Assembly: GCA_016867375.1 (NCBI GenBank)
Contig: VGJQ01000002.1
Span: 368-64,367 of the forward strand
Origin: Candidatus Kaiserbacteria bacterium
Lineage (GTDB): Bacteria > Patescibacteriota > Minisyncoccia > Phycocordibacterales > UBA2100
DNA length: 64,000 bases
Direction: 5' to 3'
The notes under the pieces are model-generated. The model saw nothing but the letters and a program-made list of their open reading frames with translations. It was not told where the DNA came from and made no database searches. Each line of letters begins with the position of its first letter. Positions within the stretch are counted from its first letter, which is position 1. Below, in pieces: positions 8,867-63,192 of this stretch. Position numbers and translations under genes: made by a program.

Positions 8867-8976
8867 GGGTTCACCCACACACAACGCACCCGCTGTGCGT
8901 GGCGGCCACCTATAGGCTCGTTCATTTTGTGTTGTGTTGGTGGAAAAAATCTCGCTTTGCGGGGTATACTAGTAGT

Positions 8977-13532: not shown

Positions 13533-13613
13533 CATGCATGGACAGCCTATAACCCCTTGGGTACGAGGGTCTTTCAGATCGTACCTCTCAGACATACTCA
13601 AGTGTCCACAGCT

Positions 13614-32055: not shown

Positions 32056-32336
32056 AGGTCCCGTTCATAAGGCTCACTTCTGCATACATGACTTTTGGTC
32101 ATGTATGCAAGTGTGCACTTATAATTTCAACACAAAATGAACGGGCCCATAAGTGTAGTCCACAAATAACGAGTACGTTAATTTGTGGACGAGTCCTTAA
32201 AGTACTTGTTTATGATTCGCGGCCGCGAATCATAAACAAGTACTTTTATCCGGACAATATATTTTGGGATGTTCTAAGGCTTAACCTTAGAACAGATATG
32301 CTATCTTTGCGCTATAGCGTGGAGATAGCATACAGA
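32056..32336. repeat. Composite repeat: module C + module B (32056-32200), 46-bp perfect palindrome AAGTACTTGTTTATGATTCGCGG|CCGCGAATCATAAACAAGTACTT (32199-32246), palindrome GTTCTAAGG-CTTAA-CCTTAGAAC (32270-32292), module D (32297-32336)
   Basis: Read directly; right boundary of the two-gene island. Confidence 0.8.
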
Positions 32337-32414: not shown

Positions 32415-33116
32415 ATGTCCTATAGATCTCTTATTCATACGTGGTTTTGCGAACATGCTAAGGACCCGTCCATAAGGGCGGCCTTTTCCTCGATGGTGTT
32501 GCGGGTGCGCGCGGAGTGCAATGGGCACCATTGCACTACCGTGTATGATTGCATCGTTTCGGGGGAATATTACAATGTGCAGACGATGGCCTACTATTAT
32601 TCGCCGTTTCGGAAGGTATATGCAAAACCGTCTGAAGGGTGCCCTTTTTGTACAAGCGCCACGTTTGCAGAGCAGATCATCACTTCAGGGCACGGTATGG
32701 CAGTCGAGAATGAGCATTATCGATGGATCATTAATGCATATCCAAAATTTGAAGGCCATACCATGGTGGTGCCTAAGCGTCATGTGACTACTCTTGGCGA
32801 TGAGAGTGCTGAAGAAATTGTCGCTCGGGAAGAGCTCATTGTGTTGGCGTCAAACACACTTCGGAAGCTGTATCCAGGGTCGGGAATTGAAGTATTTATA
32901 CAAACAGGAGAGGGTTCAGAAAGTAGCGTAGCCCATTTGCACTGGCATGTAGTGCCTTCACTTCCCGAGGATCATCTGCGCGGCTTTGACAAACTCGGTC
33001 ATTTCTTTACGATTGAGCAAGACAAGGAAAAGGTAATCGTCTTTCCGGTGCCGATTCGATTGGCACAAAGCGATCTCCTCAACGCCTTGAGAGATGTTCT
33101 TAGGTCCCGTTCATAA
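32415..33116 (+). CDS. HIT-superfamily (GalT/Ap4A-phosphorylase-like) nucleotidyl hydrolase or transferase
   Basis: Histidine-triad-like HLHWHVVP and a CPFC zinc-knuckle-like motif. The 3' end and stop codon lie inside a module B repeat. Confidence 0.55.
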   Translation: MSYRSLIHTWFCEHAKDPSIRAAFSSMVLRVRAECNGHHCTTVYDCIVSGEYYNVQTMAYYYSPFRKVYAKPSEGCPFCTSATFAEQIITSGHGMAVENEHYRWIINAYPKFEGHTMVVPKRHVTTLGDESAEEIVAREELIVLASNTLRKLYPGSGIEVFIQTGEGSESSVAHLHWHVVPSLPEDHLRGFDKLGHFFTIEQDKEKVIVFPVPIRLAQSDLLNALRDVLRSRS

Positions 33117-33194
33117 ATAATTTCAACACCAAATGAACGGGTCCATAAGTGTAGTCCACAAATAACGAGTACGTTATTTGTGGACGAGCCCTTA
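33099..33194. repeat. Module B copy overlapping the last ~6 codons and stop of the HIT-family gene
   Basis: GGTCCCGTTCAT..GTTATTTGTGGACGAGCCCTTA. Confidence 0.75.
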
Positions 33195-39700: not shown

Positions 39701-40751
39701 GAATGATGCGACGGCTGCGTACGACATCCTCCCGACCACGGTCGATGCGGTGAACAATACTTTGACCGCGACCGTGTCCCACTTCTCGGATTTCGCGCCG
39801 ATAGTCCCTGCACAATCGACGACTCCCGGCGTGACGCCCGCAAGCACCCCCGTTGGCAATGGTGCGCCGGTGGGCGGCGGAGGCGGAGGCGGAGGCGGTT
39901 CCACAGGCCCCGCGCCGCGTGCGCAGATCATCTATCCGGATGGTCGTATCGTGTACCTCGATCAGATGAACGGTTCGGAAGCGAAGGTGACCGCTGCTGC
40001 GGCGCCTGCCCAATTCACGAACGCTCCGAAGTCTCTCTCCGACATTCATATCGGCACCACTGTTTCCGGTCGCTTCGTTGCTGCGCTCAAACAAGGTTCA
40101 CGCGGCAAGGACGTTTCGCGCCTGCAAAAGCTCCTTGGCGTCGAAGAAACGGGTTACTTCGGTCTCAAGACCGTAAAAGCCGTGCAAGAATTTCAGCTCA
40201 CTTACGGTGTCGTAAAGAAAAACGGCTCTGGTTACGGGTTGCTCGGCCCCAAGACACGCGCCAAACTCGAAGAAGTATTTTCTTCGAGAGCGATATCGGC
40301 GCAAGCGAGTGCACAAGGACAAACGTCGAGCGGCAACGCTTCGGCTGTTGCAGCCGTCCCGTTCACGCGCACACTCACGGTGGGGATGACAGGCGACGAC
40401 GTGAAGCTTCTCCAGATCATCCTCAACGGCGATCCCGATACGCGGCTTGCCGCATCGGGCGACGGCAGCCCCGGTATGGAGACAAACAAGATTGGCCGCC
40501 TCACCATAAGAGCCATTGAGAAGTTCCAGATCAAACATGGGCTTGTCAAGAAAGGTGCGAGCGGTTTCGGCAATCTCGGCCCCAAGACACGCGCCAAGTT
40601 GAACGAAATCCTCACGGCGCCGGTCGTGGTGACGGAAACAGTCGTCGCGACTTCCTCGCCATCCGTCCCTTCGGTCGCTACGACGACGGCAGCGTCGGCT
40701 GGCGCAACGGTGACGGCAACGACGACCGTCGCCACCAGCACCGCGCAATAG
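33795..40751 (+). CDS. Giant cell-surface protein (2318 aa): signal peptide, many Ig-like and carboxypeptidase-regulatory-like beta-sandwich repeats, Gly9 and Pro6 linkers, two C-terminal peptidoglycan-binding (PGBD-type) repeats
   Basis: Single uninterrupted ORF. N-terminus MRNIIRFFGALGILSVFLFTGLHIASA. Recurrent ..TGSV.D..G..V..A.V......G.Y.L.V..G.Y.. modules. Two copies of LKQGSRGKDVSRLQKLLG..GYFG..T..AV..FQ...GL...G..G.LGPKTRAKL at the C-terminus. Confidence 0.8.
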   Translation: MRNIIRFFGALGILSVFLFTGLHIASAAITSNTAADLTITGQTIKASSTPLAVIGLNVAVNAGEKLASTSIMIAGSNGFAVATDLAPLGTATSSGIALYRDTNGNGRFDAAADTVVPLASAPVFTGATTTLSLTGAGETPISNAGGNNYFLVVQTAGAAVNGHAFTVSIYPGNIQYSSATPAGSPTALTTNTITVDTTAPALNAGMTGPMNGSTGVPISTFIHMGFNENLDQTTLNSSNITLTAGGSPVGIAVRPFPDGFDVVVSNPPSYAASSRFAKASTVSTGFFGVNGTNTIFPQGTYTAPVVGDIVFTQFDTFAPDIGIVTNNTLTSGTFGVNGFALFRPAQITKFAVPNSIGAVTAATGVGIGDLIVVNTSANPTDVKYNWHVVTTADAVNGASLRLDGSGAAPTYQSGSSFSRLLPAATSTVNGSGVLNASTTFAVGDLVFAHLSAGGDNLNRYAWHLVTAVTGAGILGPQGGGGTISLDGGTPTFANNSVVAKLTTAGNGAVDTGTPDATSFSFGDIMFSKVTANAGNTGSYAFHMISNGATGATSTALRLDNSASNLLPSTAYVATASTGVKDAAGNALASPVTLSFTTGSTGGTNTTPPAVMNTQPQQGNQQFAPNGKIALTFSVTMLADGGANAVNNAAVVVLSTSVNGAPGSAVTATRSYDATTNTLTVTPSANLATNTEYVVQVTTAARTTTGVSMPGEYRLYFRTASAVDNTAPTVPGVNPAAGSTGISLSQVFTAGFSKDMDPATVSTSTVKLLTQVGGTAVAGNVSYNPMSRSANFVPSVVLNTSTGYRFQIGAGLTGPADLAGNRLAATSTSFATTTASADAVSPIVSFASADNFGIAVTFSETMKTGSGPNAADNIANYTLESPTGTSISLGGKTVVYDAGTRTARISGLSLQNGNTFKVTIATPVQDLAGNGISTAGTPAGNLSFGTVQSSSMTGGQLGPGTGTMDQSQQGMNPIRVSPMSRSAGVISQYNVTFPAATSIPLGGQIVLTFPSGFDVTNAAMVATSSNASFCNTDVNGPMSGSPYILSVSNDANAGTITLNTAGAASGANAFVCLDIAGIVNSTVPSTAGYVVDLKTRDTAGNNRAILETKSAAPFFLGVAGTRTLTVNVFNDGNANSTINANEGIGNVKVFLFSPASGGQMATTSASGVATFTSLADGDYMLGLDPGSLATASSTVTYNSAPQNFTVSATTLVKNIIVSGAGSTVTISGTITGPSGTSIDIFASSPNGFSKKTMTLTAGPDAYSIPVQTNSTYNIGVGPAMPDTAFIPGAPPPPPPTFTFMPPPSLMVTVATTSVSGKNFTLSSASKTITGSVLDSAGNAVSNAGVFARPVSNSTGAGGASGSDLGFGTGGMTNTSGAFTLNVVPGTYLVGVFKPGMPNVPDQQITVPSSGANTPSSLTFKLGVGSSLTISGTVKDDSGNAVPYSGVSGRKITSTSDTTPIGGGQGNFVGGPADANGAYTLYVTNGVWQIEAYAPGFGKLGSKTITVAGSSLSGQDFSAQTLSIGTITGSTTVASAGVQGVIVRAEGANGANMAVSDATGSYSLKVPAGTYTLTCVFPGQGDSTPTTGVAVTANNTTSGQDCALAAPITVTVRLTDGTNPITNAFVDARTSTGRGNGTGDNATSSIYGVYTLTLAPGTYTIRAGSPAFGPIGSTAGVSSTQTITYTTPKLYSVTGTVSASGVGAINTWVSLTGTPTGQTNIITTGSQTGAGGAFAISVPAGSYQIRADKPGFISSTPSTVTVTGDTAAGTLALTTASLTISGQVTLSGSGVSGAFVDATNGSGGFAVAQTDASGNYSLAVSSGTWTVTARSIGYSGATTASVVGGSASGQNIALSAISGFTVRPERQENVTPTMGGLLTNSDIGNAFKLNIPANALGTGSNAGTVKTQNNTALPNIVNGTVLAKSGVSISAVDASGQPVKNLNDSVTITVPYNESDIPSGRSESDLQLGVWNDATAAYDILPTTVDAVNNTLTATVSHFSDFAPIVPAQSTTPGVTPASTPVGNGAPVGGGGGGGGGSTGPAPRAQIIYPDGRIVYLDQMNGSEAKVTAAAAPAQFTNAPKSLSDIHIGTTVSGRFVAALKQGSRGKDVSRLQKLLGVEETGYFGLKTVKAVQEFQLTYGVVKKNGSGYGLLGPKTRAKLEEVFSSRAISAQASAQGQTSSGNASAVAAVPFTRTLTVGMTGDDVKLLQIILNGDPDTRLAASGDGSPGMETNKIGRLTIRAIEKFQIKHGLVKKGASGFGNLGPKTRAKLNEILTAPVVVTETVVATSSPSVPSVATTTAASAGATVTATTTVATSTAQ

Positions 40752-40902
40752 AGGGGTGTTGCCGCAAAAACAACCGAGTAAAGCACCTACGCAAGCCTGG
40801 CTCGCATGTATACCTACTCTCGGTCGAGCGACTCTCGGTCGTGGTGCGTTAAGCTTCCAACAGATGGTCGGTGCCCGTCTTGCCCATGGAAGCAGACACC
40901 GA

Positions 40903-40938
40903 ATAGGCGGCCGCTGACTAAAAAAGTCAGCGGCCGCC
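40903..40938 (+). terminator. Strong hairpin GGCGGCCGCTGAC-TAAAAAAG-TCAGCGGCCGCC downstream of the giant gene
   Basis: 13-bp perfect stem; no clean T-tract, so terminator function is uncertain. Confidence 0.45.
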
Positions 40939-40948
40939 ACTCTCTTGT

Positions 40949-40978
40949 TGACTTTCACGGGCGTTTCGCATATATTTA
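40949..40978 (+). promoter_or_regulatory. Candidate sigma70-type promoter for the rpsZ-secY ribosomal cluster (-35 TTGACT, 17-nt spacer, -10 TATATT), followed by a ~180-nt leader
   Basis: Hexamer match and spacing read directly. Confidence 0.4.
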
Positions 40979-41158
40979 CTCCTGCCTCGTAGGGGCTTCG
41001 TTTTTGGCTGATCTTGGGTCTCTCTTGGCCCAGATATCGCAAGAATCAAGCCACACAGGGGAATCCCATAACCAGGTACCGAAAGGTCTGGTGCAGGGTC
41101 TCCGAAACTCCTCTAGGCAACCCCTCGACATGGCTCGGGGTACAATTCTTCGCATTTT

Positions 41159-41344
41159 ATGGCTAAAACATCAATGAAAGTGAAGGCACTTCGCACCCCG
41201 AAATTCAAGTCGCGGGTCGTTCGTCGCTGCTTCAAGTGTGGCCGCCCGCGTGGTTTTATGCGTGATTTCAATCTCTGCCGCATTTGCTTCCGCGAAGAAT
41301 CTCTCGAGGGCAATATCCCTGGCATTAAGAAATCGAGCTGGTAG
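41159..41344 (+). CDS. rpsN: 30S ribosomal protein S14 type Z (zinc-ribbon form, 61 aa)
   Basis: [23 protein letters not shown] (CxxC..CxxC). Confidence 0.9.
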
Positions 41345-41371
41345 TCCAAAATATCTCACTATAAAAATCCT

Positions 41372-41767
41372 ATGGTTACAGATCCTGTCGCAGACTTCAT
41401 AAATCGTCTCACCAACGCTGGCGCGGTGGGCCACAAGACCGTTTCGCTCCCGTTTTCACTCTTTAAGGCTGCAATCGCCGAGAAGCTCAAAGAAGCTGGC
41501 TATGTCGCCGCGATCGAGAAAAAGGGCAAGAAAGTCCGCAAGACTCTCGATATTACCCTCAAATACGACGAGGCAGGCAAGCCGGTGATCCATGGCGTCA
41601 AGCGCATTTCCAAGCCAGGCCGTCGCCTGTATCGAAGCGTCAATGAAATCATTCCCGTCCGCTACGGACACGGCGCACTCGTGCTCTCTACTCCCAAAGG
41701 CATCATGACGGACAAAGAGGCCCGTAAGGCTAATGTCGGCGGCGAGGCCCTGTTTGAAATCTGGTAA
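41372..41767 (+). CDS. rpsH: 30S ribosomal protein S8
   Basis: MVTDPVADFINRLTNA N-terminus and ..GGEALFEIW C-terminus. Confidence 0.9.
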   Translation: MVTDPVADFINRLTNAGAVGHKTVSLPFSLFKAAIAEKLKEAGYVAAIEKKGKKVRKTLDITLKYDEAGKPVIHGVKRISKPGRRLYRSVNEIIPVRYGHGALVLSTPKGIMTDKEARKANVGGEALFEIW

Positions 41768-41969
41768 GGTTTGTCCCACGAAATGAGCGCATTCCGTGCG
41801 TTCATTTCGTGGCTGACAAACCTTACCCAGCACCTTTTCAAGTACGAATCAATGGTAACTTGGCAGGGTCTCGGGAAAAAGGTATGTTTAGTCACCACAG
41901 TACCAATAGCGTGAAAGGTGCTGGGTGTAAGAGCTTCTAAGCTCGTTACACTCGCTAATAATCTCTAAC

Positions 41970-42506
41970 ATGAGTCGACTTGGCAAAAAATCAATCCATA
42001 TTCCGTCGGGGACTGAGGTCGCCGTCTCGGGGCACGAAATCACCGTCAAGGGCAAAAACGGTACCCTCAAGAAGTCGATCCATCCGGCGGTCTCTATCAT
42101 GGTCGCAGATGGCGCTGTCTCGGTCTCTCCGGCGACCTCGAGCCGCCTTTCCAAGGCCCTCTGGGGTACGTATGCGGCCCACGTAGGCAATATGCTCAAA
42201 GGTGCCTCTACCGCCTTTTCAAAGAAGCTCGAAGTGCAGGGCATCGGTTACAAGGTCGAGCTCTCCGGTAAGACGCTCAACCTCTCGGTCGGATTTTCGC
42301 ATCCGGTCAAGGTCGAGATACCTGAAGGCATCTCGGTGACAGTCGAGAAGAATACGATCACGATTTCAGGAGCTGATAAGGATGCGGTCGGACAGTTTGC
42401 CGCCAATGTCCGCGCTATTAAGAAGCCAGAACCATACAAGGGCAAGGGCATCCGGTATGAAGGCGAGGTCGTACGCATGAAGGAAGGTAAGAAAGCGGGA
42501 GCATAA
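41970..42506 (+). CDS. rplF: 50S ribosomal protein L6
   Basis: [17 protein letters not shown]..; spc-operon order. Confidence 0.9.
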
Positions 42507-42517
42507 TCCACATTTTT

Positions 42518-42862
42518 ATGGCACTTACAAAAACACAACAGAGACAGCGTCGTCACAATCGCGTCCGCGCGAAGGTCGTCGGCACCGCAGATCGCCCGCG
42601 CTTGTCGGTCTTCAAGTCCAATACACGCCTCGTCGCGCAGATCATCGACGATACCAAGATGGTGACGATCGCCGCTATCTCTTCAGACAAGGAGAAGGGC
42701 AAGACCCCGCGCGAGCGCGCGGAAGCATCGGCAGTGACGCTCGCAAAGGCAGCACGGGGGAAGGGTATCAAGGCAGTGGTGTTTGATCGCGGCGGATTCC
42801 AGTACAAGGGTACTATCCAGGTATTTGCCGATGCGGTCCGCGCTGCGGGATTAGATTTCTAA
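42518..42862 (+). CDS. rplR: 50S ribosomal protein L18
   Basis: [18 protein letters not shown]..; operon position. Confidence 0.85.
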
Positions 42863-42874
42863 TATATTCATAGT

Positions 42875-43447
42875 ATGGCAACCGAACACACAACGGAAAA
42901 GGAGGAAGCAAAGGTCGTCGAGAATGGTCGCGCTGATCATCGCGGTCCGCGCGGTCGCGGTGGAGATCGAGGGGGTCGTGGCGGCAGGGGTCCGCGCGAT
43001 GATCGCGCTCCCCGCAGCGAGTATTCGCAAAAGCTCATCGGCATCCGTCGTGTCGCACGCGTCATGGCAGGCGGTCGCCGCTTCAATTTCAGCGTATGCA
43101 TAGTGATCGGCGACAAGAAAGGCTCAGTCGGTGTCGGCTTGGGTAAAGCGGCAGACACAGCGCTTGCGATCGAGAAGGCTACCCGCGATGCCAAGACCAA
43201 TATGATCAAGATCTCCCTCACCAAAAATCGCTCAATCAAGCACGACGTATCATCCAAATATTGCGCATCGGTCGTCGGTATCCGCCCCAGCCCTGGCCGT
43301 GGTCTCGTCGCGGGCTCGTCCGTCCGTACCGTGCTCGAGCTCGCCGGCGTATCCGATGTCACCGCCAAGCTCCTCTCTCGCAGCAAGAATCCGATTAACA
43401 ACGCGCGTGCAGCTGTCGATGCGCTGCGCCAGGTAATAGAAAAATAA
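42875..43447 (+). CDS. rpsE: 30S ribosomal protein S5 with RGG-rich N-terminal extension
   Basis: IRRVARVMAGGRRFNFSVCIVIGDKKGSVGVGLGKA core, N-terminal GRGGDRGGRGGRGP. Confidence 0.9.
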   Translation: MATEHTTEKEEAKVVENGRADHRGPRGRGGDRGGRGGRGPRDDRAPRSEYSQKLIGIRRVARVMAGGRRFNFSVCIVIGDKKGSVGVGLGKAADTALAIEKATRDAKTNMIKISLTKNRSIKHDVSSKYCASVVGIRPSPGRGLVAGSSVRTVLELAGVSDVTAKLLSRSKNPINNARAAVDALRQVIEK

Positions 43448-43473
43448 CGAGCACAGCAAGTATATTTTTCATT

Positions 43474-43578
43474 ATCCAGCACCACTTTTGACTTTCAGTT
43501 GAAAATATGAAAAACTATCTTCTCATGTTACAGACAGGTATCACCATATCGCACTCGCACTCAAAAGTGGTGCTGGAT
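43474..43578. repeat. Perfect 18-bp inverted repeat ATCCAGCACCACTTTTGA / TCAAAAGTGGTGCTGGAT separated by 69 nt, in the rpsE-rplO spacer where rpmD (L30) normally resides
   Basis: Read directly; no L30 ORF is present. Confidence 0.75.
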
Positions 43579-43617
43579 GGTGATTTTTATTGTCGCTTCG
43601 CTCTGTAAAAATCTACC

Positions 43618-44067
43618 ATGGCAAACCTTAATTCTCTCAAACGGGTAGGCGCGACGAAGAAGATGCGTGTCGGACGCGGTGGCAAGCGCGGCAAGACTTC
43701 TGGTCGCGGTACCAAGGGTCAGAGCGCGCGTGCAGGCAACAAAAAGCGCCCGGAATTGCGCGATATCATCAAGCGTCTCCCAAAGCGCCGCGGATATGGC
43801 AAGAATCGCGCCAAGGGTGTGATCGGCTCATACATAAAGCCGCTCGCGATTCCAGTCGGTCGCCTCGAAAATCTCTTCGACACAGGTGCGGAGGTAAATC
43901 CGCAGACGCTCGCGATGCGCGGCATCGTCAAAGGCAAGGGGAGCCGCGTCCCGCAGATCAAGATCGTCGCAGGCGGCGATTTCTCCAAGAAATTGTCATT
44001 TAGCAAGGTCGGTGTCTCCGCTGCTGCCAAGACGGTGATTGAAAAGGCAGGGGGCAGTGTAGTATAA
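43618..44067 (+). CDS. rplO: 50S ribosomal protein L15
   Basis: MANLNSLKRVGATKKMRVGRGGKRGKTSGRG.. Confidence 0.9.
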   Translation: MANLNSLKRVGATKKMRVGRGGKRGKTSGRGTKGQSARAGNKKRPELRDIIKRLPKRRGYGKNRAKGVIGSYIKPLAIPVGRLENLFDTGAEVNPQTLAMRGIVKGKGSRVPQIKIVAGGDFSKKLSFSKVGVSAAAKTVIEKAGGSVV

Positions 44068-44070
44068 ATA

Positions 44071-44101
44071 TGCAGTTTACAGTTTACAGTTTACAGTTTA
44101 C
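44071..44101. repeat. (CAGTTTA)4.4 tandem heptanucleotide repeat followed by three degenerate CCACTGTC repeats, between rplO and secY
   Basis: cagtttacagtttacagtttacagtttacag read directly. Confidence 0.85.
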
Positions 44102-44162
44102 AGAAACTCGCGGTCGAGCCGGTTTCCACTGTCCTCTGTCCACTGTCTACTGTTAACTTCTT

Positions 44163-45437
44163 ATGTTCGAGACTTTCATTCGCAAACTCAAGCTTGTCTT
44201 TGAAGACAAGACGATCCGGACGCGTATCCTCTTCGTGCTCGGGGCGCTTATTGTATTTCGCTTGCTCGCCGCGATCCCTGTGCCGGGTATCAATGCCGCC
44301 GAACTCCAGGCATTTCTCACCAACAATCAATTCCTCGGACTTCTCAACGTCTTCTCGGGAGGCGGTTTTTCCAATCTTTCGATCGTCATGCTCGGCGTCG
44401 GTCCATATATCACTGCGTCTATCGTGATGCAGCTTTTGACCGTGCTCGTACCCAAGCTCAAGGAGATGTATCAGGAAGAGGGGGATGCTGGCCGAGCTCG
44501 TTTTATGCAGTATTCTCGCTACCTCACGCTTCCGCTCGCGCTCATCCAGGGTTTTGGTTTCATCTTGCTTCTTCAGCAGAATGGCATTTTGCCGGAACTC
44601 ACGATCCTCGGCTTTGTCACCAATATGATGGTCACTGCTGCCGGCTCGATCCTTCTTATGTGGATCGGAGAGCTCATCTCAGAATACGGCGTCGGCAATG
44701 GTGTATCGCTCATCATCTTTGCCGGCATCGTCGCTGCGATCCCGACGAGCGCCGCGCAGTTCTTCTACTCGTTTGACCCTGCACAGCTTCCCGCATACGT
44801 CGGATTCTTCGCGGTCGGTATCGCCATCATGGCGGGTGTCGTCTTCATCACCGAGGCCGAGCGCCCGATCCCTGTCACGTATGCGCGCCGCGTGCGCGGT
44901 ATGAAGGTCATGGGCGGCGTATCCACGTATCTCCCGCTTCGCGTGAATCAGGCGGGAGTCATGCCCATCATCTTTGCGCTCTCTATCCTGCTTTTCCCTC
45001 AGATGATCGCGACCTTCCTCTCCAAGAGCTCGATCCTCTGGCTTGCCGAAGCTGCGCGCGCCGTCGTCGTCGCACTCAACAATCAGTGGCTCTATGGCGC
45101 GCTCTATTTCGTCCTCGTATTTATCTTCACGTATTTCTACACAGCGATCACCTTTGAGCCGCATCAGCTTGCGAAGAATCTGCAGAAGAACGGCGCTTTC
45201 ATCCCCGGCGTGCGCCCAGGCCAGAATACTTCAGAATATCTCGCCAACATCATCACGCGCATCACGCTCGTCGGCGCCCTCTTCCTCGGGTTTCTCGCCG
45301 TCTTGCCGATCATCCTTCAGGGCATTACGGGTATCACTGCGATCACAATCGGCGGCACCGCACTCCTCATCGTCGTCTCCGTAGTCCTCGACCTCGTCAA
45401 AAAGGTCGACGCGCAGACCTCGATTCGGGAGTATTGA
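44163..45437 (+). CDS. secY: Preprotein translocase subunit SecY
   Basis: Ten TM helices, conserved LNVFSGGGFSNLSIVMLGVGPYITASI plug and TM2 region. Confidence 0.9.
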   Translation: MFETFIRKLKLVFEDKTIRTRILFVLGALIVFRLLAAIPVPGINAAELQAFLTNNQFLGLLNVFSGGGFSNLSIVMLGVGPYITASIVMQLLTVLVPKLKEMYQEEGDAGRARFMQYSRYLTLPLALIQGFGFILLLQQNGILPELTILGFVTNMMVTAAGSILLMWIGELISEYGVGNGVSLIIFAGIVAAIPTSAAQFFYSFDPAQLPAYVGFFAVGIAIMAGVVFITEAERPIPVTYARRVRGMKVMGGVSTYLPLRVNQAGVMPIIFALSILLFPQMIATFLSKSSILWLAEAARAVVVALNNQWLYGALYFVLVFIFTYFYTAITFEPHQLAKNLQKNGAFIPGVRPGQNTSEYLANIITRITLVGALFLGFLAVLPIILQGITGITAITIGGTALLIVVSVVLDLVKKVDAQTSIREY

Positions 45438-45506
45438 CAAGAATACATAGTATGTGATATACTTTATTTTAGAGTACAAACTGCAGTACTCGGATTGGAG
45501 GGTGCG

Positions 45507-45905
45507 ATGGCTACTCGTGAGAAGGTACTTGAATTCCTATCAGCTATTCAGGCTGAGCAAAATGCGCTGAAGATCATCCGATCGATCTCGGACCAAAACG
45601 TCGAGTTGTCTGACTTGGACGAGAAAGGTCTCGAGGTGGTTGGGCGGGCTTATACGGCGGCTATTGAGAAAATGTTGCCGAATCTTCTGGATATCACCGC
45701 TGGCGTATACGCGAAGCATTATACCGACGACGAGATCAGCCAACTCACGACCTTCTATACCTCGCCTCTTGCGCAAAGACAAACCTCTCTAGCGAAAGAG
45801 ATCAACGAGGCCGTCGGCGAATATCTTGAGGGGGCAAAGGAAGATATTGTGAAGATTATTAAAGGAGCCATCGACGACGTCGATGGCATAAAGAAGTCCG
45901 ACTGA
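45507..45905 (+). CDS. Hypothetical cytoplasmic protein (132 aa)
   Basis: GGAGGG SD 8 nt before ATG 45507 (track start 45495 is TTG). Confidence 0.5.
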   Translation: MATREKVLEFLSAIQAEQNALKIIRSISDQNVELSDLDEKGLEVVGRAYTAAIEKMLPNLLDITAGVYAKHYTDDEISQLTTFYTSPLAQRQTSLAKEINEAVGEYLEGAKEDIVKIIKGAIDDVDGIKKSD

Positions 45906-45934
45906 TGTTGTCCCGCGCCACCGTGTATACGGCC

Positions 45935-45969
45935 GGCGCGGGATTCTTTTTATTTTTTTTGGTATAGTG
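45935..45969 (+). promoter_or_regulatory. First copy of a 33-bp direct repeat GCGGGATTCTTTTTATTTTTTTGGTATAGT containing an extended -10 (TGgTATAGT); second copy at 47630-47664
   Basis: Direct repeats bracket the hicBA/phd-relE island; -10-like hexamer TATAGT at 45964-45969. Confidence 0.5.
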
Positions 45970-46041
45970 TCGCAGGTCGGGCTTATGACACTAGCGAGGA
46001 ATTCATTTTGTATATGGGTAGATTCGGGGTATACTACAAAT

Positions 46042-46326
46042 ATGAAAAAGCGCGCCAAGAAGATCAAGACGGAGGTACAGACCGATTACGGATTGTTCGC
46101 GGTTGTGCTTGAGAGCGAACCCGATATGGGTGGGTACATGATAACGGTGCCGAAAGTACCACCTGTAATTACGTGTGGAAGAAACATAACACATGCCAAA
46201 GAAATGGCTCGCGAGGCGATCGAATTAACGCTTGAGACGCAAACACTCCATGCTGCAGAGCAGGCAGGTCGGATCAAGTTCACAAAGAAAGCGTCATTGC
46301 CGGCTCATGGTGTTGCTTTTGCATGA
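46042..46326 (+). CDS. hicB: HicB-family antitoxin
   Basis: GGYMITVPKVPPVITCGRNITHAKEMAREAIELTLE matches the HicB N-terminal RNase-H-like domain. TATACT sits 6 nt upstream of the ATG, so the mRNA is possibly leaderless. Track ORF starts at 45967 (GTG). Confidence 0.65.
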   Translation: MKKRAKKIKTEVQTDYGLFAVVLESEPDMGGYMITVPKVPPVITCGRNITHAKEMAREAIELTLETQTLHAAEQAGRIKFTKKASLPAHGVAFA

Positions 46327-46544
46327 GCACATTGCCGATACTTTCGGCGCGAGAAACGATGCGCCGACTCATACGGCTCGGATTTCGCGTTGAAGGATAT
46401 CGGGGAAGTCATGCGATATTGGTGCACGATCGAACAGGACGGGAAACCACCGTACCGATGCATCCAGGCGACCTTGGCCGGAAGTTGCTCTCCGGCATCA
46501 TCAAACAATCCGGCGTGAATCTTCAGGATTTTCTGAGTGCGTAA
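46323..46544 (+). CDS. hicA: HicA-family toxin (mRNA interferase)
   Basis: RLIRLGFRVEGYRGSHAILVHDRTGRETTVPMHPGDLGRKLLSGIIKQSGV has the HicA dsRBD-like fold signature (GSH..vp.H). 4-nt overlap with hicB. Confidence 0.7.
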   Translation: MSTLPILSARETMRRLIRLGFRVEGYRGSHAILVHDRTGRETTVPMHPGDLGRKLLSGIIKQSGVNLQDFLSA

Positions 46545-46670
46545 GATAGAGAGTGGTCGATATAATCACGATTGGCGGCACGGCGCTTCCCATCGCATCT
46601 GCGTAGTCCTCGACCTCGTCAAAAAGATCGACGCGCAGACGAGTATAAGGGTTCATTTTGAATACAGTAA

Positions 46671-46913
46671 ATGATGAGGTATAATGTAAATGTGAATATT
46701 ATAACCATTCCACAAAGAATCATATCGAACGACGATCTCGTTATCATCCCTCGCAAGGAGTACGAGGCGCTCAAGGCGCGGCCGGTTGTCGCTGAGTTTG
46801 CGCCATCATCGGCGCAGGTGCGCACACTCTCCCGTGCACGCAAGCATTTCAAAGAGGGCAAAACCATTTCCTATGATGAAATCGTCAAGCGAGTGGCGGC
46901 TCGCGGTCGATAA
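46671..46913 (+). CDS. Phd/YefM-type antitoxin
   Basis: IITIPQRIISNDDLVIIPRKEYEALKA matches the Phd/YefM N-terminal pattern (..pvvItrrgkpvaVlls.eeYeaL). A relE-like remnant lies downstream. Confidence 0.55.
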   Translation: MMRYNVNVNIITIPQRIISNDDLVIIPRKEYEALKARPVVAEFAPSSAQVRTLSRARKHFKEGKTISYDEIVKRVAARGR

Positions 46914-46943
46914 CAGTGTCGACAAAATGCTCGGTCGCATCCC

Positions 46944-47035
46944 GCATAAGGGCTCGTCCACACATAATGTACCCATTATTTGTGGACTACACTTATGGGC
47001 CCGTTCATTTGGTGTTGAACTTCGGGACCTAAGGA
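46944..47035. repeat. Module A repeat inserted between the phd-like antitoxin and the truncated relE
   Basis: AAGGGCTCGTCCACACATAATGTACCCATTATTTGTGGACTACACTTATGGGCCCGTTCATTTGGTGTTGAAC. Confidence 0.8.
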
Positions 47036-47048
47036 TGCGGAAGCCCTG

Positions 47049-47231
47049 TTGGATGTCGTTGCGTCCCTCGTCATCAATCCATTCTTGGGTGATATTCAGA
47101 AGATGAAAGGCAAAGACAACGTTTGGCGCAGACGTATCGGCGCATATCGTATATTCTTCGAGATTTACCCATTGGTACGAATTGTGCATGTGTATCACAT
47201 CGAACGCCGCACATCGTCGACATATCGATAG
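47049..47231 (+). pseudogene. relE: RelE/ParE-family toxin lacking its N-terminal ~25 codons (5' truncation coincident with the module A insertion)
   Basis: ..NPFLGDIQKMKGKDNVWRRRIGAYRIFFEIYPLVRIVHVYHIERRTSSTY aligns with the RelE C-terminal two-thirds. There is no in-frame ATG; an upstream in-frame stop lies at 47016, inside the repeat. Confidence 0.55.
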
Positions 47232-47305
47232 TATTCGGGAGTATTGACGTGCAGGCAATACCCAATTACTATCTGCCTCAGACGTAATCAGGAAAGGGTA
47301 AGGAT

Positions 47306-47587
47306 ATGGCTATGAAGGCTCGCTACGCTCTGTTTCTCATACTACTGCTCCCGCTTGCGAGCAGCGCTGCTTTCTACATAAAGCCGGACGATCGGAAGTG
47401 GCCCGAAAAGCCATCGATCTACCTCGTGGAGGCGAAGATTATCATCATGGAGTATGTCGAAGAAATGTCGCAACTGTATAAAACACATATGGGGCAGGAA
47501 TTGTCAGCTCAACAGAAGGCTGAGATAAGGGACGAGACGCTTACCCACATGATCGCACAAGGGAGCTACCGGTTTATAGCACCATAA
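47306..47587 (+). CDS. Small secreted hypothetical protein (93 aa)
   Basis: Signal peptide MAMKARYALFLILLLPLASSAA; followed by a terminator. Confidence 0.5.
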   Translation: MAMKARYALFLILLLPLASSAAFYIKPDDRKWPEKPSIYLVEAKIIIMEYVEEMSQLYKTHMGQELSAQQKAEIRDETLTHMIAQGSYRFIAP

Positions 47588-47593
47588 TCTGAA

Positions 47594-47621
47594 AATCCAG
47601 AGCGTCGCTCTGGATTTTTTC
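47594..47621 (+). terminator. Rho-independent terminator ATCCAGAG-CGTCG-CTCTGGAT + TTTTTT
   Basis: Read directly. Confidence 0.7.
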
Positions 47622-47629
47622 TTGTGGCG

Positions 47630-47664
47630 TAAAGCGGGATTCTTTTTTATTTTTTTGGTATAGT
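47630..47664 (+). promoter_or_regulatory. Second copy of the 33-bp direct repeat. -10 TATAGT at 47659-47664 lies only 7 nt before the gmk ATG, so gmk is probably leaderless
   Basis: Identity with 45935-45969 read directly. Confidence 0.5.
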
Positions 47665-47671
47665 AGGTGCC

Positions 47672-48259
47672 ATGCAGCTCAAACAAGTCGTGGTGATTGC
47701 AGGACCTTCCGGTAGCGGGAAAAATGCGGTGATCGACGAGATCATCAAGATATGTCCGCGCTGCGAACGGCTCGTCACGGCGACCACGCGCGCTCCACGG
47801 GTAGGGGAGATCAACGGTGTCGATTATCATTTCCTCAAACGCGATGAGTTTGACCGGGCGCTTGCAAGCGGAGATATCCTCGAACATCGCTATGTCAGCT
47901 CGCTCGACACGCATTATGGTGTATACAAGCCCGATCTTGAGAGTCGCCTGACGCTCGGTCAGGTCGTGTTCGCGCATCTCGATATTATCGGTGCACGTTA
48001 CCTCAAGGAGCATTACAATGCGACGACGATTTTCATCATGCCGGATTCACTTGAAATATTGGAGAGTCGTGTGCGCGGACGCAACCACGATATGCCGGAG
48101 GAAGAAGTGCAGAAGCGCATGGCGATTGCACGCACCGAAGTCACCGAACATGCTCCAAAATACGACTACCGTGTATTGAATATAAACGGCAAGCTTGATC
48201 AGACGATAGCGCAGGTCGTGGAGATATTAAAAAAGGAAGGATACGACCTGTCGCCATGA
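47672..48259 (+). CDS. gmk: Guanylate kinase
   Basis: P-loop GPSGSGKNA, TTRAPR guanylate-kinase motif, ..GVDYHFL. Confidence 0.8.
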   Translation: MQLKQVVVIAGPSGSGKNAVIDEIIKICPRCERLVTATTRAPRVGEINGVDYHFLKRDEFDRALASGDILEHRYVSSLDTHYGVYKPDLESRLTLGQVVFAHLDIIGARYLKEHYNATTIFIMPDSLEILESRVRGRNHDMPEEEVQKRMAIARTEVTEHAPKYDYRVLNINGKLDQTIAQVVEILKKEGYDLSP

Positions 48260-48840
48260 CGCCCGTCTCCCTACTTTTTTTCGGTTCGCAGGGCTCTGGT
48301 AAGGGGACACAGGTCACCAAGGTCATCGAGTATCTCGCATCCAAATCCGATCGCAAGGTGATCCGTATCGATATGGGTGCGGAATTGCGTGCCATGGTCG
48401 GTGAAGGTGGTCATACCGGACCCTTGGTCAATGCCGTGATTAGCGCGGGCAAGCGCATGCCGGATTTCATGCCAATCTATCTCTCCACTAAAAAGTTCAT
48501 CGAACAGTTCACAGGGACAGAGCACATCATTGCCGACGGTCTCGCGCGTGGTGACGATCAGACGCGTGGCTTTGACGACATGATGCAATTTTACGGACGC
48601 GGCGATTATCAGGTCATCCATCTCGTGCTTTCCGAAGAGGTCGCTGTCCAGAGACTCCTTGCGCGCGGCCGTCCGGACGATACCGAAGAGGCAATCCGTG
48701 CTCGCCTCATCTGGAACAAGCAGATCGTCGAGCCGCAGATTGAGCTTTTGCGCACCCGTGGCAGGCTCGTACATCAGATCAACGGTGAGCAAGATCCCGA
48801 CCTAGTGCATCGCGACATCCTCTTCGCCCTCAAGTGGTAA
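48256..48840 (+). CDS. adk: Adenylate kinase (short, no zinc lid)
   Basis: P-loop GSQGSGKGTQ and GRPDDTEE (RxDD) motifs; 4-nt overlap with gmk. Confidence 0.75.
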   Translation: MTPVSLLFFGSQGSGKGTQVTKVIEYLASKSDRKVIRIDMGAELRAMVGEGGHTGPLVNAVISAGKRMPDFMPIYLSTKKFIEQFTGTEHIIADGLARGDDQTRGFDDMMQFYGRGDYQVIHLVLSEEVAVQRLLARGRPDDTEEAIRARLIWNKQIVEPQIELLRTRGRLVHQINGEQDPDLVHRDILFALKW

Positions 48841-48848
48841 GGGTATTA

Positions 48849-48888
48849 AAAGGCGACGCCTTTTAGGCAAAAAGGCGTCGCCTTTTTC
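48849..48888 (+). terminator. Rho-independent terminator AAAAGGCGACGCC-TTTTAGGCAAAA-AGGCGTCGCCTTTTT
   Basis: Read directly. Confidence 0.65.
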
Positions 48889-49711: not shown

Positions 49712-49972
49712 TTAATCGTAGATATCGTGATCGCCGATTTCGTAGAAATGAACGATTTCTTTTGTTGTACCAAAATCGAAAATGATCCGATACTCATTAT
49801 TGACCGAAAAGGCGAGAAAGCCATCGAGAGATCCGGATAATTTGTGCGTCTTCAAGCGTTGATCAAAAGGATCCGCCTGGAATATTTGCACCCTTTTCTC
49901 CGTAAGTAATTTGATGGATAGAGGCAATTTCTTGTATTGCCGCATGAACTTTGAGAGATACTGTATTTCCAT
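49712..49972 (-). CDS. RelE/YafQ-family type II toxin
   Basis: ..THKLSGSLDGFLAFSVNNEYRIIFDF..IVHFYEIGDHDIY resembles the YafQ/RelE core (dHpLqG...ahv.pdwlliY...l.l.rtGtH). Convergent and abutting the map stop. Confidence 0.6.
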   Translation of the reverse strand: MEIQYLSKFMRQYKKLPLSIKLLTEKRVQIFQADPFDQRLKTHKLSGSLDGFLAFSVNNEYRIIFDFGTTKEIVHFYEIGDHDIYD

Positions 49973-49988
49973 GACCCCTTGATACTTG

Positions 49989-50204
49989 CTATCGCCAGTC
50001 TTGTAATGATTTTAAGACCTTGCCCTTGCCTTGGTCAAATTGGCGGCGTTGTGCGTATAAGCTGCGCGCCAGTTGTGCTCGTTTATACTCTCGAATGAGC
50101 GTACGGATAAACTCGCTCGTCGAGGCAAATCCTTCGCGCCTTACCTCGCGCTTGAGCTCATCGGCCATTTCCTTTGGTAACGATATGTTTACGATTGTTC
50201 GCAT
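49989..50204 (-). CDS. Ribbon-helix-helix (CopG/RelB-like) antitoxin
   Basis: MRTIVNISLPKEMADELKREVRREGFASTSEFIRTLIREY; 16 nt upstream of the toxin on the same strand. Confidence 0.6.
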   Translation of the reverse strand: MRTIVNISLPKEMADELKREVRREGFASTSEFIRTLIREYKRAQLARSLYAQRRQFDQGKGKVLKSLQDWR

Positions 50205-50250
50205 GTAATACATTGTATTACACCCTGTTTGAAATGCAAGTGAAGTTAAT

Positions 50251-50412
50251 TTAGGTCCCATTCATAAATTAAGGCTCACTTTTGCTATGCAAGTGTGCAC
50301 TTATGGGCCGATGTATATTCTTATACATCGGCCCGAAGTTCAACACAAAATGAACGGGCCCATACGTGTAGTCCACAAATAATGTACCCGTTATGTGTGG
50401 ACGAGCCCTTAA
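50251..50412. repeat. Composite repeat: module C deletion variant (50262-50310), perfect palindrome GGGCCGATGTATA-TTCT-TATACATCGGCCC (50302-50331), module B (50335-50412)
   Basis: Read directly. Confidence 0.8.
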
Positions 50413-50439: not shown

Positions 50440-53205
50440 ATGGAAACGCGCGGGATGGAGCGGACATCTTTTACCTCGTCGGAAAAATTTAAATCTCCCC
50501 AAGAGGAGCTTGCCTATCTGCGCGAGCGTGTGCGCGAAAGAGAGCGAGAGCTTGATATCTCGAGCAATCGCCACGAGAGCGATCGTATCGCGCGTCGCGA
50601 GGTCAAAGCGTATGGCGAAGTCCCGGCATCACGCGTCTTGCATGAGCATTTCGTCATACCCGAACACGAAGCAGTCCGCGAGATGATCAAGCTCGAGCCT
50701 GAGACACACGACAAACAGATCGATGGTCTGCTCGACATGGTCGCGCGCAGCGGCATCCGCAATGCGCTTTCGGTCGCATCGCGCATGAAGAATCCCCACC
50801 TCGAAGATGATCTCCATCGCGCGATCGTGCAGTATGTGGCAGAAGGTTTGCCCGACAAAGGTATGGGCGCTCCCGAAAAGGTCCGCAAAGGCCTCACTAT
50901 GGTGCTTTTCGAAGTGCATCCCCAGGCGCACGGCGAAGGGGATCAGAGCAAACAGCCGCACAAGCTCGAGCAACTGCTCTCGTCATCCGAACAGCTCTAT
51001 GCCGGCATCATCTCGCTCGTCGGTGAGGGAGAATCATTCTCGCTCGAGATTGCCGTAGGGCAGGGTACGGAAGAGGCGTCGCTGTATCTGGCTGTACCGC
51101 GCTCAAAGCGGGACCTCGCGGAGCGTCTGATCGCGTCGGTCTTTCCCAATGCGCGTATCACCGAAAATCGCGGAGATTACAACATCTTCAATTATGACGG
51201 CGAACACGCGGCTGCCTATGGAAAGCTCTCCCAGCACCCGGCACTGCCCTTGAAGACGTATGAATCGTTCGAGCACGATCCCCTCAATGTGCTCCTCGTA
51301 GCCTTTGCCCGGATCAAGAAACATGGCGAAGGGGCGGCGTTGCAGATCGTACTCTCCAGCGAAGGCGATCGCTACAACAAACACTACCGCAAAATGCTCC
51401 GCGAGCTCGAGAAGGGAAAGTCTTTGGGTGAGGCGCTGCGTGTGCCCGAGACTATTTTTGGTGAAGTGGTGCATGATCTGGCGAGCTCGATGTTTACGAA
51501 CGATGCGGACAAGGAGAAGGAGAAAGAGCGCGAAATGCGCCGTGTGACCGATTCGGTATCGGCGGAATCTTTGGGTCGCAAGATCAAGACCCGTATCGTG
51601 CCCGCGACGATCCGTATCGTCACCTCCGCACCGACCGCCGAGCGCGCGCATGAGATGCTTACGAATCTCGAGAGTGCATTCGGACAGTTTGACGATGCCA
51701 AGGGCAATACAATGACCTTCAAAAGCGTATCCTCGTGGTATATGCGCGATTTTCTGCGCGCATTTACCTTCCGCGAATTTGACGACTCTGTCATGATGCC
51801 GCTCTCGCTTTCCGAGATCACCTCTGTCTTTCATTTCACCGCCGAGCAGGTGACGACCTCGCGCGAGCTCAAAAAATCCTATGCCAAACAGACTCCCGCA
51901 CCGGTCGAAATGCCTGAAGACGGTATCGTCATCGGTGTCAATCGCTATGGTGGGCAGGAGACGCCAGTGCGTTTTGGTGTCGCCGACCGCTTGCGCCATG
52001 CGTACGTGATCGGTCAGACAGGTACCGGTAAGACGGGTCTCCTCAAAAATATGATCATTCAGGATATGCGCAATGGTGAAGGTGTGGCCTACATCGATCC
52101 GCATGGCAACGATATCGAAGAGCTCCTCGCTGCCGTGCCGCCCGAACGGTACGACGACGTGATCTACTTTGATCCGGCATACACAGCGCGTCCGATGGGA
52201 CTCAACATGCTCGAATACGATATCAGTCGTCCCGAAATGAAGACGTTTGTCATCGATGAAGTGTACGGCATTTTCCGTAAGCTCTATTCGGATGTGCCCG
52301 AGGCGTTTGGTCCGATGTTTGAGCAGTACTACCGCAATGCTGTACAGCTCGTGCTCGAAGATCCCGATACGGGCAACACCTTCGTCGAAGTCGCGCGTAT
52401 ATTTGCCGACTCATATTTCCGCGACATGAAGCTCGCACACTGCAAGAATCCGATCGTCGTGCAGTTTTGGCGCAAGATCGCCGAGCAGGCACAAGGAGAT
52501 CCGTCGCTTGAAAACATCGCTCCGTACATTGTCGGCAAGTTCGATGTGTTCCTGACCAATGACATCATGCGACCGATTGTTGCGCAGGAGCATTCTGCCT
52601 TCGACTTCCGTGAGATTATGGACGATCGCAAGATCTTCCTCGCCAATCTCTCCAAAGGCCGCTTGGGCGATCGTAACACCAGCCTGCTAGGCCTTGTGCT
52701 TGTGTCCAAGTTCCTCCAAGCGGCGTTTTCACGCGTGGATACGCGCGGGGATTTGCCGCCGTTTTACTTCTATATTGACGAATTCCAAAACTTCGCGACA
52801 CCCTCGATCTCGACGATCCTTTCTGAAGCGCGCAAATACAAGCTCTCACTGACGATCGCTCACCAATTCATCGCACAGCTCGACGAAGGCATCCGCGACG
52901 CCGTGATCGGCAACGTCGGTACGAAGGCAGCTTTTCGTGTCGGTACCACCGATGCCGAATTCCTCGCCAAACAATTCGAGCCGGCCTTTGCTGCCTCAGA
53001 CCTCGAAAATCTTCCCAATCGTAATGCCGTGCTCGCTCTCTTGGTCAATGGCAGACCCGCGCGCCCCTTCACAGTCGAGACGATCGAGCTACCAAAAGTC
53101 GACTTCACCAAGGTCGATGCACTTAAGAAGCTTTCATACGATCGATTTGGTAGTGATAGGGGAGAAGTGGAAGCCGACATCCAGCGCAAATTTGACCAAC
53201 TCTAG
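50440..53205 (+). CDS. TraD/TrwB/VirD4-family P-loop ATPase paralog (921 aa) with a ~500-aa N-terminal domain of unknown function
   Basis: Core HAYVIGQTGTGKTGLLKNMIIQDMRNGEGVAYIDPHGN.., FYFYIDEFQNF and LTIAHQFIAQLDEG are collinear with 8977-11166. The N-terminal half has no recognisable motif. Confidence 0.75.
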   Translation: METRGMERTSFTSSEKFKSPQEELAYLRERVRERERELDISSNRHESDRIARREVKAYGEVPASRVLHEHFVIPEHEAVREMIKLEPETHDKQIDGLLDMVARSGIRNALSVASRMKNPHLEDDLHRAIVQYVAEGLPDKGMGAPEKVRKGLTMVLFEVHPQAHGEGDQSKQPHKLEQLLSSSEQLYAGIISLVGEGESFSLEIAVGQGTEEASLYLAVPRSKRDLAERLIASVFPNARITENRGDYNIFNYDGEHAAAYGKLSQHPALPLKTYESFEHDPLNVLLVAFARIKKHGEGAALQIVLSSEGDRYNKHYRKMLRELEKGKSLGEALRVPETIFGEVVHDLASSMFTNDADKEKEKEREMRRVTDSVSAESLGRKIKTRIVPATIRIVTSAPTAERAHEMLTNLESAFGQFDDAKGNTMTFKSVSSWYMRDFLRAFTFREFDDSVMMPLSLSEITSVFHFTAEQVTTSRELKKSYAKQTPAPVEMPEDGIVIGVNRYGGQETPVRFGVADRLRHAYVIGQTGTGKTGLLKNMIIQDMRNGEGVAYIDPHGNDIEELLAAVPPERYDDVIYFDPAYTARPMGLNMLEYDISRPEMKTFVIDEVYGIFRKLYSDVPEAFGPMFEQYYRNAVQLVLEDPDTGNTFVEVARIFADSYFRDMKLAHCKNPIVVQFWRKIAEQAQGDPSLENIAPYIVGKFDVFLTNDIMRPIVAQEHSAFDFREIMDDRKIFLANLSKGRLGDRNTSLLGLVLVSKFLQAAFSRVDTRGDLPPFYFYIDEFQNFATPSISTILSEARKYKLSLTIAHQFIAQLDEGIRDAVIGNVGTKAAFRVGTTDAEFLAKQFEPAFAASDLENLPNRNAVLALLVNGRPARPFTVETIELPKVDFTKVDALKKLSYDRFGSDRGEVEADIQRKFDQL

Positions 53206-63154: not shown

Positions 63155-63192
63155 GGGCTCGTCCGCACATAACGTACCCTATGTATGATAGA

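Follow-up and report, generated by a model that had tools for sequence, protein, structure and literature searches.

An accessory islet between secY and gmk in a Candidatus Kaiserbacteria genome, probably formed by tandem joining of two versions of the same spacer

In a 64-kb stretch of a Candidatus Kaiserbacteria metagenome-assembled genome (hereafter the window, meaning the whole stretch that was analysed), the genes secY and gmk (guanylate kinase) stand apart by DNA that carries toxin-antitoxin genes, two interleaved pairs of repeats and a broken toxin gene, and that we refer to as the islet. This arrangement probably arose when one crossover placed two versions of the secY-gmk spacer in tandem, with a gene cassette and a miniature repeat element inserted later. 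An initial annotation of this DNA had described a toxin-antitoxin island bounded by direct repeats and inserted between secY and the gmk-adk-map block; our analysis retains the insertion while revising its limits, its content and the nature of its ends. The features that carry the argument are listed here, the open reading frames (ORFs) among them with the evidence for each:

44163-45437, forward strand: secY, intact, 424 aa (ORF list), with 74-82% identity to its counterparts in related Kaiserbacteria and Paceibacterota genomes
45342-45440, forward strand: A1, the functional secY 3′ end and first tail copy; matched in the islet by blastn at 67/77 positions (E 8e-21) and in a further block of 16/16
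45507-45905, forward strand: gene with a DUF2059 domain (Pfam PF09832, 35.4 bits), 132 aa, an orphan at the sequence level
45910-45944, forward strand: ancestral terminator hairpin whose 3′ half runs into B1 (fold -26.2 kcal/mol, z -4.7)
45938-45968, forward strand: B1, first copy of a 31-nt repeat, GCGGGATTCTTTTTATTTTTTTTGGTATAGT, made up of hairpin tail, T-run and TGGTATAGT
46042-46326, forward strand: hicB-like antitoxin gene, 94 aa (Pfam HicB_lk_antitox, PF15919, 26.0 bits against a cut-off of 27, N-terminal half only)
46323-46544, forward strand: hicA toxin gene, 73 aa, intact (PF07927, 51.7 bits against a cut-off of 27, profile 2-58 of 58; HicA-like by PADLOC)
46565-46646, forward strand: A2a, first part of a pseudo secY 3′ end, with a 1-nt deletion, 84-87% identical to 45342-45418
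47235-47250, forward strand: A2b, last part of the pseudo secY tail, with stop codon (47233-47248 is 16/16 identical to 45423-45438)
47306-47587, forward strand: orphan ORF, 93 aa, with a signal-peptide-like N-terminus (ORF list)
47591-47619, forward strand: second, different terminator hairpin, then T6 (by folding)
47634-47664, forward strand: B2, second copy of the 31-nt repeat, GCGGGATTCTTTTTTATTTTTTTGGTATAGT, the working gmk promoter
47672-48259, forward strand: gmk, first gene of the native gmk-adk-map block (Pfam 95.2 bits; synteny in relatives)

Sixty-two related loci were collected with secY as the query, and the context upstream of gmk was examined in the genomes with the nearest gmk (protein identity 77-87%). 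Where secY identity is 74-82%, the native order is L15-secY-gmk-adk-map, followed by a VirD4-like gene, and the distance from the secY stop to the gmk start is 4-160 nt in 15 relatives as against 2,234 nt here (45438-47671). All 2,234 nt are therefore extra, the DUF2059 gene included, which upholds the earlier view that DNA was inserted at this junction but not the picture of a self-contained island lying between the direct repeats, as the extra DNA starts at the secY stop and carries a diverged secY 3′ end. The four inserted segments have a G+C content of 0.48-0.50, compared with 0.52-0.58 in the flanking genes.

B1 and B2 enclose 1,665 nt that hold hicB, hicA, an antitoxin-like gene, a broken relE/parE gene and the 93-aa ORF. 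The initial annotation gave these direct repeats as 33-35 bp; they are real and unique in the window, but they measure 31 nt, their ends are shifted by 3-4 nt, and the 30-mer then quoted matches neither copy exactly. The copies differ solely in the place of a single A in the T-run (5T-A-8T in B1, 6T-A-7T in B2), and a search allowing up to three mismatches returns two matches in 64 kb, with 0.00 expected from 100 shuffles; the shorter word TTTTTTGGTATAGT is restricted to the same two sites. Each repeat is a copy of a module in which the 3′ arm of a terminator hairpin leads into a T-run and then into an extended -10 element, TGGTATAGT, which stands 6-7 nt before the gmk ATG. TATAGT lies 7 nt 5′ of the ATG at 47672, and no ATG occurs at that spacing after B1.

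The module has clear counterparts in relatives, named here by locus. In L070 a strong hairpin is followed by GCGGGATTCTTTTTATTTTTTTGGTATAGT, six further bases and the gmk ATG; L072 and L074 arrange hairpin, T-run and TATAGT in the same manner, as a single copy directly 5′ of gmk; and looser forms of the hairpin, T-run and -10 module precede gmk in L065, L068 and L073. The invariant columns of the aligned gmk upstream regions are TTTGnTATAnT, the extended -10 element, always 6-7 nt from the ATG, and the hairpins 5′ of gmk fold at -26 to -30 kcal/mol. (A consensus terminator scan missed both hairpins of the islet, whose stems are bulged, and folding was used instead.) Because relatives carry the module once, 5′ of gmk, the repeat is the lineage's own terminator tail and gmk promoter, that is, its own gmk control module and not the end of a mobile element. 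Duplication of the gmk promoter, as had been suggested, is borne out by the single copies in L070, L072 and L074, which also supply the empty site that the initial annotation had asked for, though in relatives of different species only. Nor is the repeat a widespread promoter motif: the window and the viral collection hold no further copies, and the pattern GCGGGATTCTTTTT-N7-11-GGTATAGT found none in the viral collection and one unrelated chance match (L071) in the metagenome collection. Relatives with the same genes and no repeats were likewise not seen among these loci, where the islet genes are absent and the motif is present once.

B1 and B2 have kept opposite sides of the ancestral site. 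B1 retains the left flank, a complete hairpin (45910-45944) that is orthologous to the gmk-upstream hairpins of L072 (86% over 65 nt), L070 and L074. B2 lacks the 5′ half of this hairpin, following the different terminator at 47591-47619 instead, and retains the right flank (AGGTGCC-ATG, compared with AGGGGC-ATG in L070); extended by the 6 nt that follow, it matches the region 5′ of gmk in L070 at 95% identity across 37 nt. DNA matches to the islet in relatives are limited to three pieces, namely the hairpin with B1, B2 with the 6 nt downstream, and the pseudo secY tail. The 31-nt repeat can be read either way, as a crossover site or as two orthologous promoter copies. A resemblance between the second terminator and the gmk-upstream hairpin of L073 was set aside: the stems look alike by eye, and the blastn match was not significant.

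The second repeat pair, overlooked by the initial annotation, is the secY tail itself. The last ~97 nt of secY recur in the islet as the two pieces A2a and A2b, the first of which also matches the secY 3′ ends of >20 other genomes; when the pieces are joined they read GCG CAG ACG AGT ATT CGG GAG TAT TGA, or AQTSIREY-stop. A1 and A2 differ by seven synonymous codon changes (among them a serine codon switched from TCG to AGT), four non-synonymous changes and one frameshift, a synonymous excess relative to neutral decay (P = 0.012). Most of the divergence of A2 therefore arose in a working secY of another lineage and not after duplication in place. The longest exact words shared between the copies are ~24 nt or less. 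A search for a recombination breakpoint by windowed secY identity against L068 and others was uninformative, since conservation rises at the 3′ end whichever genomes are paired.

The two repeat pairs interleave in the order secY tail, promoter, secY tail, promoter, and the locus therefore consists of two tandem units of secY tail, cargo and promoter with unrelated cargo. Version 1 would comprise the secY tail, the DUF2059 gene, the hairpin and B1, and version 2 the secY tail that is now a pseudo-copy, the 93-aa ORF, the different terminator and B2. At the joint between them lies the intact hicBA pair, which together with the following 20 nt would mark the point at which a circle closed. We infer that a circularised fragment of the same locus, derived from a related lineage, entered the resident locus by a single crossover (Campbell-type integration), for which the 31-nt module and the secY tail are alternative sites, since both give the observed order. 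The outcome would have left secY intact and gmk-adk-map still provided with a promoter. Within the pseudo secY tail lie four further features:

46647-47234, forward strand: antitoxin-relE cassette, 588 nt, inside the pseudo secY tail, with AGTAT at both junctions (46642-46646, 47230-47234)
46692-46913, forward strand: antitoxin-like gene, 73 aa, with a GTG start 6 nt after TATAAT; 137 homologous clusters
46873-47231, forward strand: relE/parE toxin gene, split in two (46873-46951, 47035-47231) by an 83-nt repeat element
46952-47034, forward strand: miniature repeat element, 83 nt, with a 12-bp hairpin and TAAGG on both sides; at least nine copies in the window

Two later insertions would account for these features. 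The 588-nt cassette would have entered the redundant secY tail, leaving AGTAT on both sides; it has no terminal inverted repeats, and a 5-nt microhomology joining at AGTAT explains its junctions as well as target duplication does. The 83-nt element would then have split relE and left a lone antitoxin gene. In relE as present, only the C-terminal 60 aa match the toxin family (profile 35-87 of 89), and no single frame holds the full domain; removal of the 83 nt restores the reading frame and yields a 91-aa ORF that matches ParE_toxin (profile 3-86 of 89, 30.6 bits). The element in relE is 97% identical to the copy at 13613, and its insertion is therefore probably recent.

Several points weigh against a tandem joining of two spacer versions. 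Homologue searches with the DUF2059 protein (among 5.8 billion proteins) and with the 93-aa ORF, which matches no family, returned only the query itself, so neither version has been observed alone. Exact-protein look-ups with hicB, the DUF2059 protein, secY and gmk returned the same arrangement only and no separate version. No relative of the same species was found, and hence no true empty site or donor version was seen; the genomes that show the module as a single copy have a gmk only 78-87% identical. Just 11 changed codons enter the synonymous-bias test, the data cannot distinguish the promoter module from the secY tail as the crossover site, and the formation of a 1.2-1.7 kb circle without a recombinase is unexplained.

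A first alternative is that the segment from tail to promoter was duplicated in place, or that a second secY was mostly deleted, and that divergence, replacement of the cargo and insertion of hicBA followed. The interleaved order is indeed what a tandem duplication produces. However, the cargo is unrelated between the units, the DUF2059 gene in one and the 93-aa ORF in the other; the synonymous bias, with its three-base serine codon switch, is not expected of a dead copy decaying where it stands; two secY copies at this locus occur in no related genome; and at least three extra events would be needed. We regard this history as unlikely.

Integrase-made junctions typically show flanking direct repeats of ~30 nt, and the 1.7-kb segment between B1 and B2 could be taken for a small integrative element with the 31-mer as its attL/attR core and the secY fragment as the trace of an earlier imprecise excision in a donor. 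Its 31-nt direct repeats at both ends, their sharp limits and its addiction-type genes suit such an element. Nevertheless, no integrase or transposase was found in the islet, nor any tyrosine or serine recombinase there or among the larger ORFs of the window (Pfam, PHROGs); blastn against phage and plasmid records gave no match to the islet; and the 31-mer is confined to its two sites in the window and absent from the viral collection, its one hit in the metagenome scan being due to chance. An integrative element is thus a doubtful explanation as well.

A further-reaching idea, to which we give only a slight chance, is that the secY tail and the gmk terminator-promoter are dedicated sites of a cassette-stacking system, either integrase-free or served by a recombinase encoded elsewhere. 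If this were true, micro-cassettes would bring their own secY tail and promoter, and spacer versions would pile up while secY and gmk stayed unharmed; the junction would amount to a minimal integron-like capture site in candidate phyla radiation bacteria, and the toxin-antitoxin pairs that follow secY in L050 and L032 would be products of the same mechanism.

An assembly chimera of two strain variants of the locus could be suspected in a metagenome-assembled genome, the more so as the units share short exact words, but we consider it hardly credible. Contigs L002 (SRR7985589) and L001 (SRR16108666), from two further sequencing runs, show 100% identity to the window at 38163-46993 and 46993-48866, and both end inside the miniature repeat element; this identity holds across the junctions B1-hicB, hicA-pseudo-secY, relE-pseudo-secY and B2-gmk. 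With this support, all islet junctions are independently supported except one within the repeat element, and across that sole unconfirmed junction the two relE halves join into one full-length domain. The arrangement of the islet is no assembly artefact. A transposon or insertion sequence spanning the whole 1.7-kb segment was rejected, as the segment has no terminal inverted repeats and no transposase, and the 31-nt repeat is a native promoter.

The tandem joining that we prefer took place, if correct, at a junction that is itself variable. What precedes gmk changes from one close relative to the next in nearly all cases: there may be nothing, an ORF of 56 aa, one of at least 70 aa (a lower bound, since a contig end cuts it) or a pilin cluster, and small accessory genes of the clade have a hot spot at the secY-gmk junction. 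A DUF2059 gene after secY is absent from all 62 related loci. Two Paceibacterota loci carry toxin-antitoxin pairs directly 3′ of secY, hicBA in L050 (9245-9760) and a YafQ-type pair in L032 (9457-9901), and a cytidylate-kinase-like gene occupies this position in L004, L005 and L014; across Paceibacterota, insertions recur at the 3′ flank of secY. In L077-L080, whose gmk is 77% identical, a type IV pilin gene and a pilM/N gene precede gmk in place of secY, and the junction upstream of gmk is a rearrangement breakpoint too. Farther along the block, a YafQ/RelE-like toxin and a ribbon-helix-helix antitoxin are encoded on the reverse strand at 49712-50261, between map and the VirD4-like gene and beside repeat copies; small ribbon-helix-helix or HigB-like genes lie between the same two genes in L065, L068 and L077. 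A lone MazE-like ORF is present at 14834-15100.

The islet had been credited with two toxin-antitoxin pairs, hicBA and phd/relE'. The first is kept as a putative pair; in the second 'phd' is not Phd/YefM and relE is truncated by the 83-nt element. The hicB product gives weak matches to solved HicB structures (E 0.04), the hicB stop and the hicA start overlap by 4 nt, and hicB likewise comes first in the homologous pair of L050. Homologues of the antitoxin-like protein are mostly 72-77 aa long and align from residue 1, and we place its start at the GTG at 46692 because the family alignment begins there; the gene overlaps relE by ~40 nt. Identity with Phd/YefM was rejected after neither the protein nor 29 homologues matched any Pfam or NCBIfam entry. 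The family profile weakly matches the RelB3 antitoxin (E 0.03), and the protein is a member of an unnamed family of ~72 residues. Its N-terminal motif is matched in 30 separate stretches of a 2,073-aa database protein (P0123), which is possibly a repeat protein, or else a repeat array mistaken for a gene. No known RNA families were found in the islet.

The initial annotation had also pointed to leaderless starts at hicB and gmk. Two promoter-like regions bear on the starts within the islet:

45434-45463, forward strand: promoter-like site of the DUF2059 gene, its -35 TTGACA drawn from the secY stop region; a consensus match only (11/12)
46008-46041, forward strand: hicB promoter-like region (TTGTAT, 16 nt, TATACT, 6 nt, ATG), read from the sequence

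At gmk, hicB and the antitoxin gene a -10 box stands 6-7 nt from the start codon with no ribosome-binding site, and TGnTATAnT lies 6-7 nt before the ATG in seven orthologous gmk upstream regions, a conservation that leads us to infer that gmk is probably transcribed without a leader. The geometry proposed earlier is conserved in seven gmk regions and present at hicB, where TATACT lies 6 nt from the ATG, but it is general to the genome and not a property of the islet. In the window there are 42 instances of TAnnnT placed 5-8 nt before an ATG that opens an ORF of ≥60 aa, compared with 8.4 ± 2.5 in shuffles (about five-fold), and this leaderless-type geometry is seen at the ribosomal protein genes L6 and S5, the VirD4-like gene, hicB and gmk, many of the sites having a TGn extended -10 element; leaderless starts may be a general habit of this genome. 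Leaderless transcripts are frequent for toxin-antitoxin genes in Mycobacterium tuberculosis (PMC3898074, PMC8485053), with which the islet shares the -10 spacing, although here such starts are predicted from the geometry and its conservation.

The secY end GAGTATTGAC provides a TTGACA or TTGACG -35 box both after the real secY and after the pseudo tail, with promoter-like sites at 45434-45463 directed towards the DUF2059 gene and at 47244-47272 directed towards the 93-aa ORF. The hicB promoter region and the antitoxin promoter at 46652 have TTCATTTTGWATA in common, a 13-mer weakly above chance. Derivation of these two promoters from the repeat element is unsupported, as a profile built from eight copies finds none there.

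The repeat family to which the 83-nt element belongs consists of units of 80-100 nt with the core TAAGGGCTCGTCCACAAATAACG..CGTTATTTGTGGAC..GGGCCCGTTCATTTGGTGTTGAAC and a 12-bp hairpin. Copies lie at the following positions, with (-) marking the reverse strand:

69-163, 8864-8935, 13613-13701, 19153-19236(-), 28998-29094: repeat-family copies, set 1
32110-32199(-), 33099-33194(-), 46947-47034, 50335-50411(-), 63152-63186: repeat-family copies, set 2

At least nine copies per 64 kb is a high density for so small a genome. Several copies stand just 5′ of leaderless-type promoters (8977, 50440), and some adjoin a second hairpin unit of 68 nt (13690, 19095, 27370, 32054). The element has the attributes of a miniature inverted-repeat transposable element (MITE), being short, non-coding, present in many copies and flanked by a duplicated target (TAAGG at the relE site); its ends, TAAGGGCTCG and TTAGGTCCCG, match at ~7/10 positions and so form weak terminal inverted repeats. 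ORF 235-936 (233 aa), which has an IS200-like Y1 transposase domain (E 1.8e-6), is flanked by long palindromes at 160-212 and 939-997, with the repeat copy at 69-163 nearby, and is a possible mobiliser of the repeats, either of the type associated with repetitive extragenic palindromes (REPs) or IS200-like.

Elsewhere in the window, a tRNA-like gene appears to be interrupted at 19294-19662. Its halves (19374-19408 and ~19626-19662) are separated by ~215 nt that match no known intron family, and joined they fold into a cloverleaf of -31 kcal/mol with a probable GGT (Thr) anticodon; a further 5′ copy, incomplete and with an inserted hairpin, is found at 19294-19345, and neither ARAGORN nor Rfam called the gene at their thresholds. 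Paralogous genes for VirD4/TraG-like coupling proteins at 8899-11166 and 50440-53205 share DNA stretches that are 70-72% identical, and the second is conserved 3′ of map in all close relatives. A gene at 33795-40751 for a protein of 2,318 aa (Big_5, CarboxypepD_reg) interrupts the ribosomal protein cluster 5′ of S8-L6-L18-S5-L15-secY.

The islet illustrates clearly how accessory genes can come and go at a core-gene junction of a very small genome while the essential genes beside it stay unbroken. Its scars record at least three events, namely the tandem join of versions, the insertion of a cassette and the inactivation of a toxin by a miniature repeat element. Comparison of the gmk regions further gives evidence of a terminator combined with an extended -10 promoter that would drive a leaderless gmk, and the -10 spacing across the window suggests frequent leaderless starts in a Kaiserbacteria genome.

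The components of the islet are each akin to systems already described. The miniature element resembles MITE/REP-like repeats (PMC10969869) in its length of ~83-100 nt, its hairpin, its many copies, its interruption of a gene and the TAAGG flanks at the one reconstructable site; it differs in that terminal inverted repeats are weak, and the only candidate mobilising enzyme in the window is the Y1 ORF 235-936. The hicBA pair resembles type II hicAB modules in its full-length HicA, small HicB-like partner and 4-nt overlap, although here the antitoxin gene comes first and HicB is short (94 aa), falls below the family cut-off and has no recognisable DNA-binding domain. The restored toxin matches the ParE/RelE fold family and its upstream gene overlaps it by ~40 nt, as in relBE/parDE modules, whereas here the toxin is interrupted and the antitoxin comes from the unnamed ~72-aa family.

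At the level of the whole locus, elements that integrate in the Campbell manner or target the 3′ ends of genes likewise leave an intact gene, cargo, a displaced and diverged 3′ end and flanking direct repeats; here, in contrast, no recombinase was found, the repeat pairs are two and interleaved, and the target is the tail of a protein gene and a promoter instead of a tRNA gene. Islets at core-gene hot spots share with this one their conserved flanks (secY and gmk), variable content and lower-G+C insert with toxin-antitoxin genes, but the present islet is only 2.2 kb long, has no integrase, tRNA gene or transposase at the site, and bears scars that show the incoming DNA to be another version of the same locus. 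The locus reveals no new kind of system; it exemplifies genome mosaicism clearly but in an ordinary form, and belongs to a known class of feature, with a history that is unusually readable.

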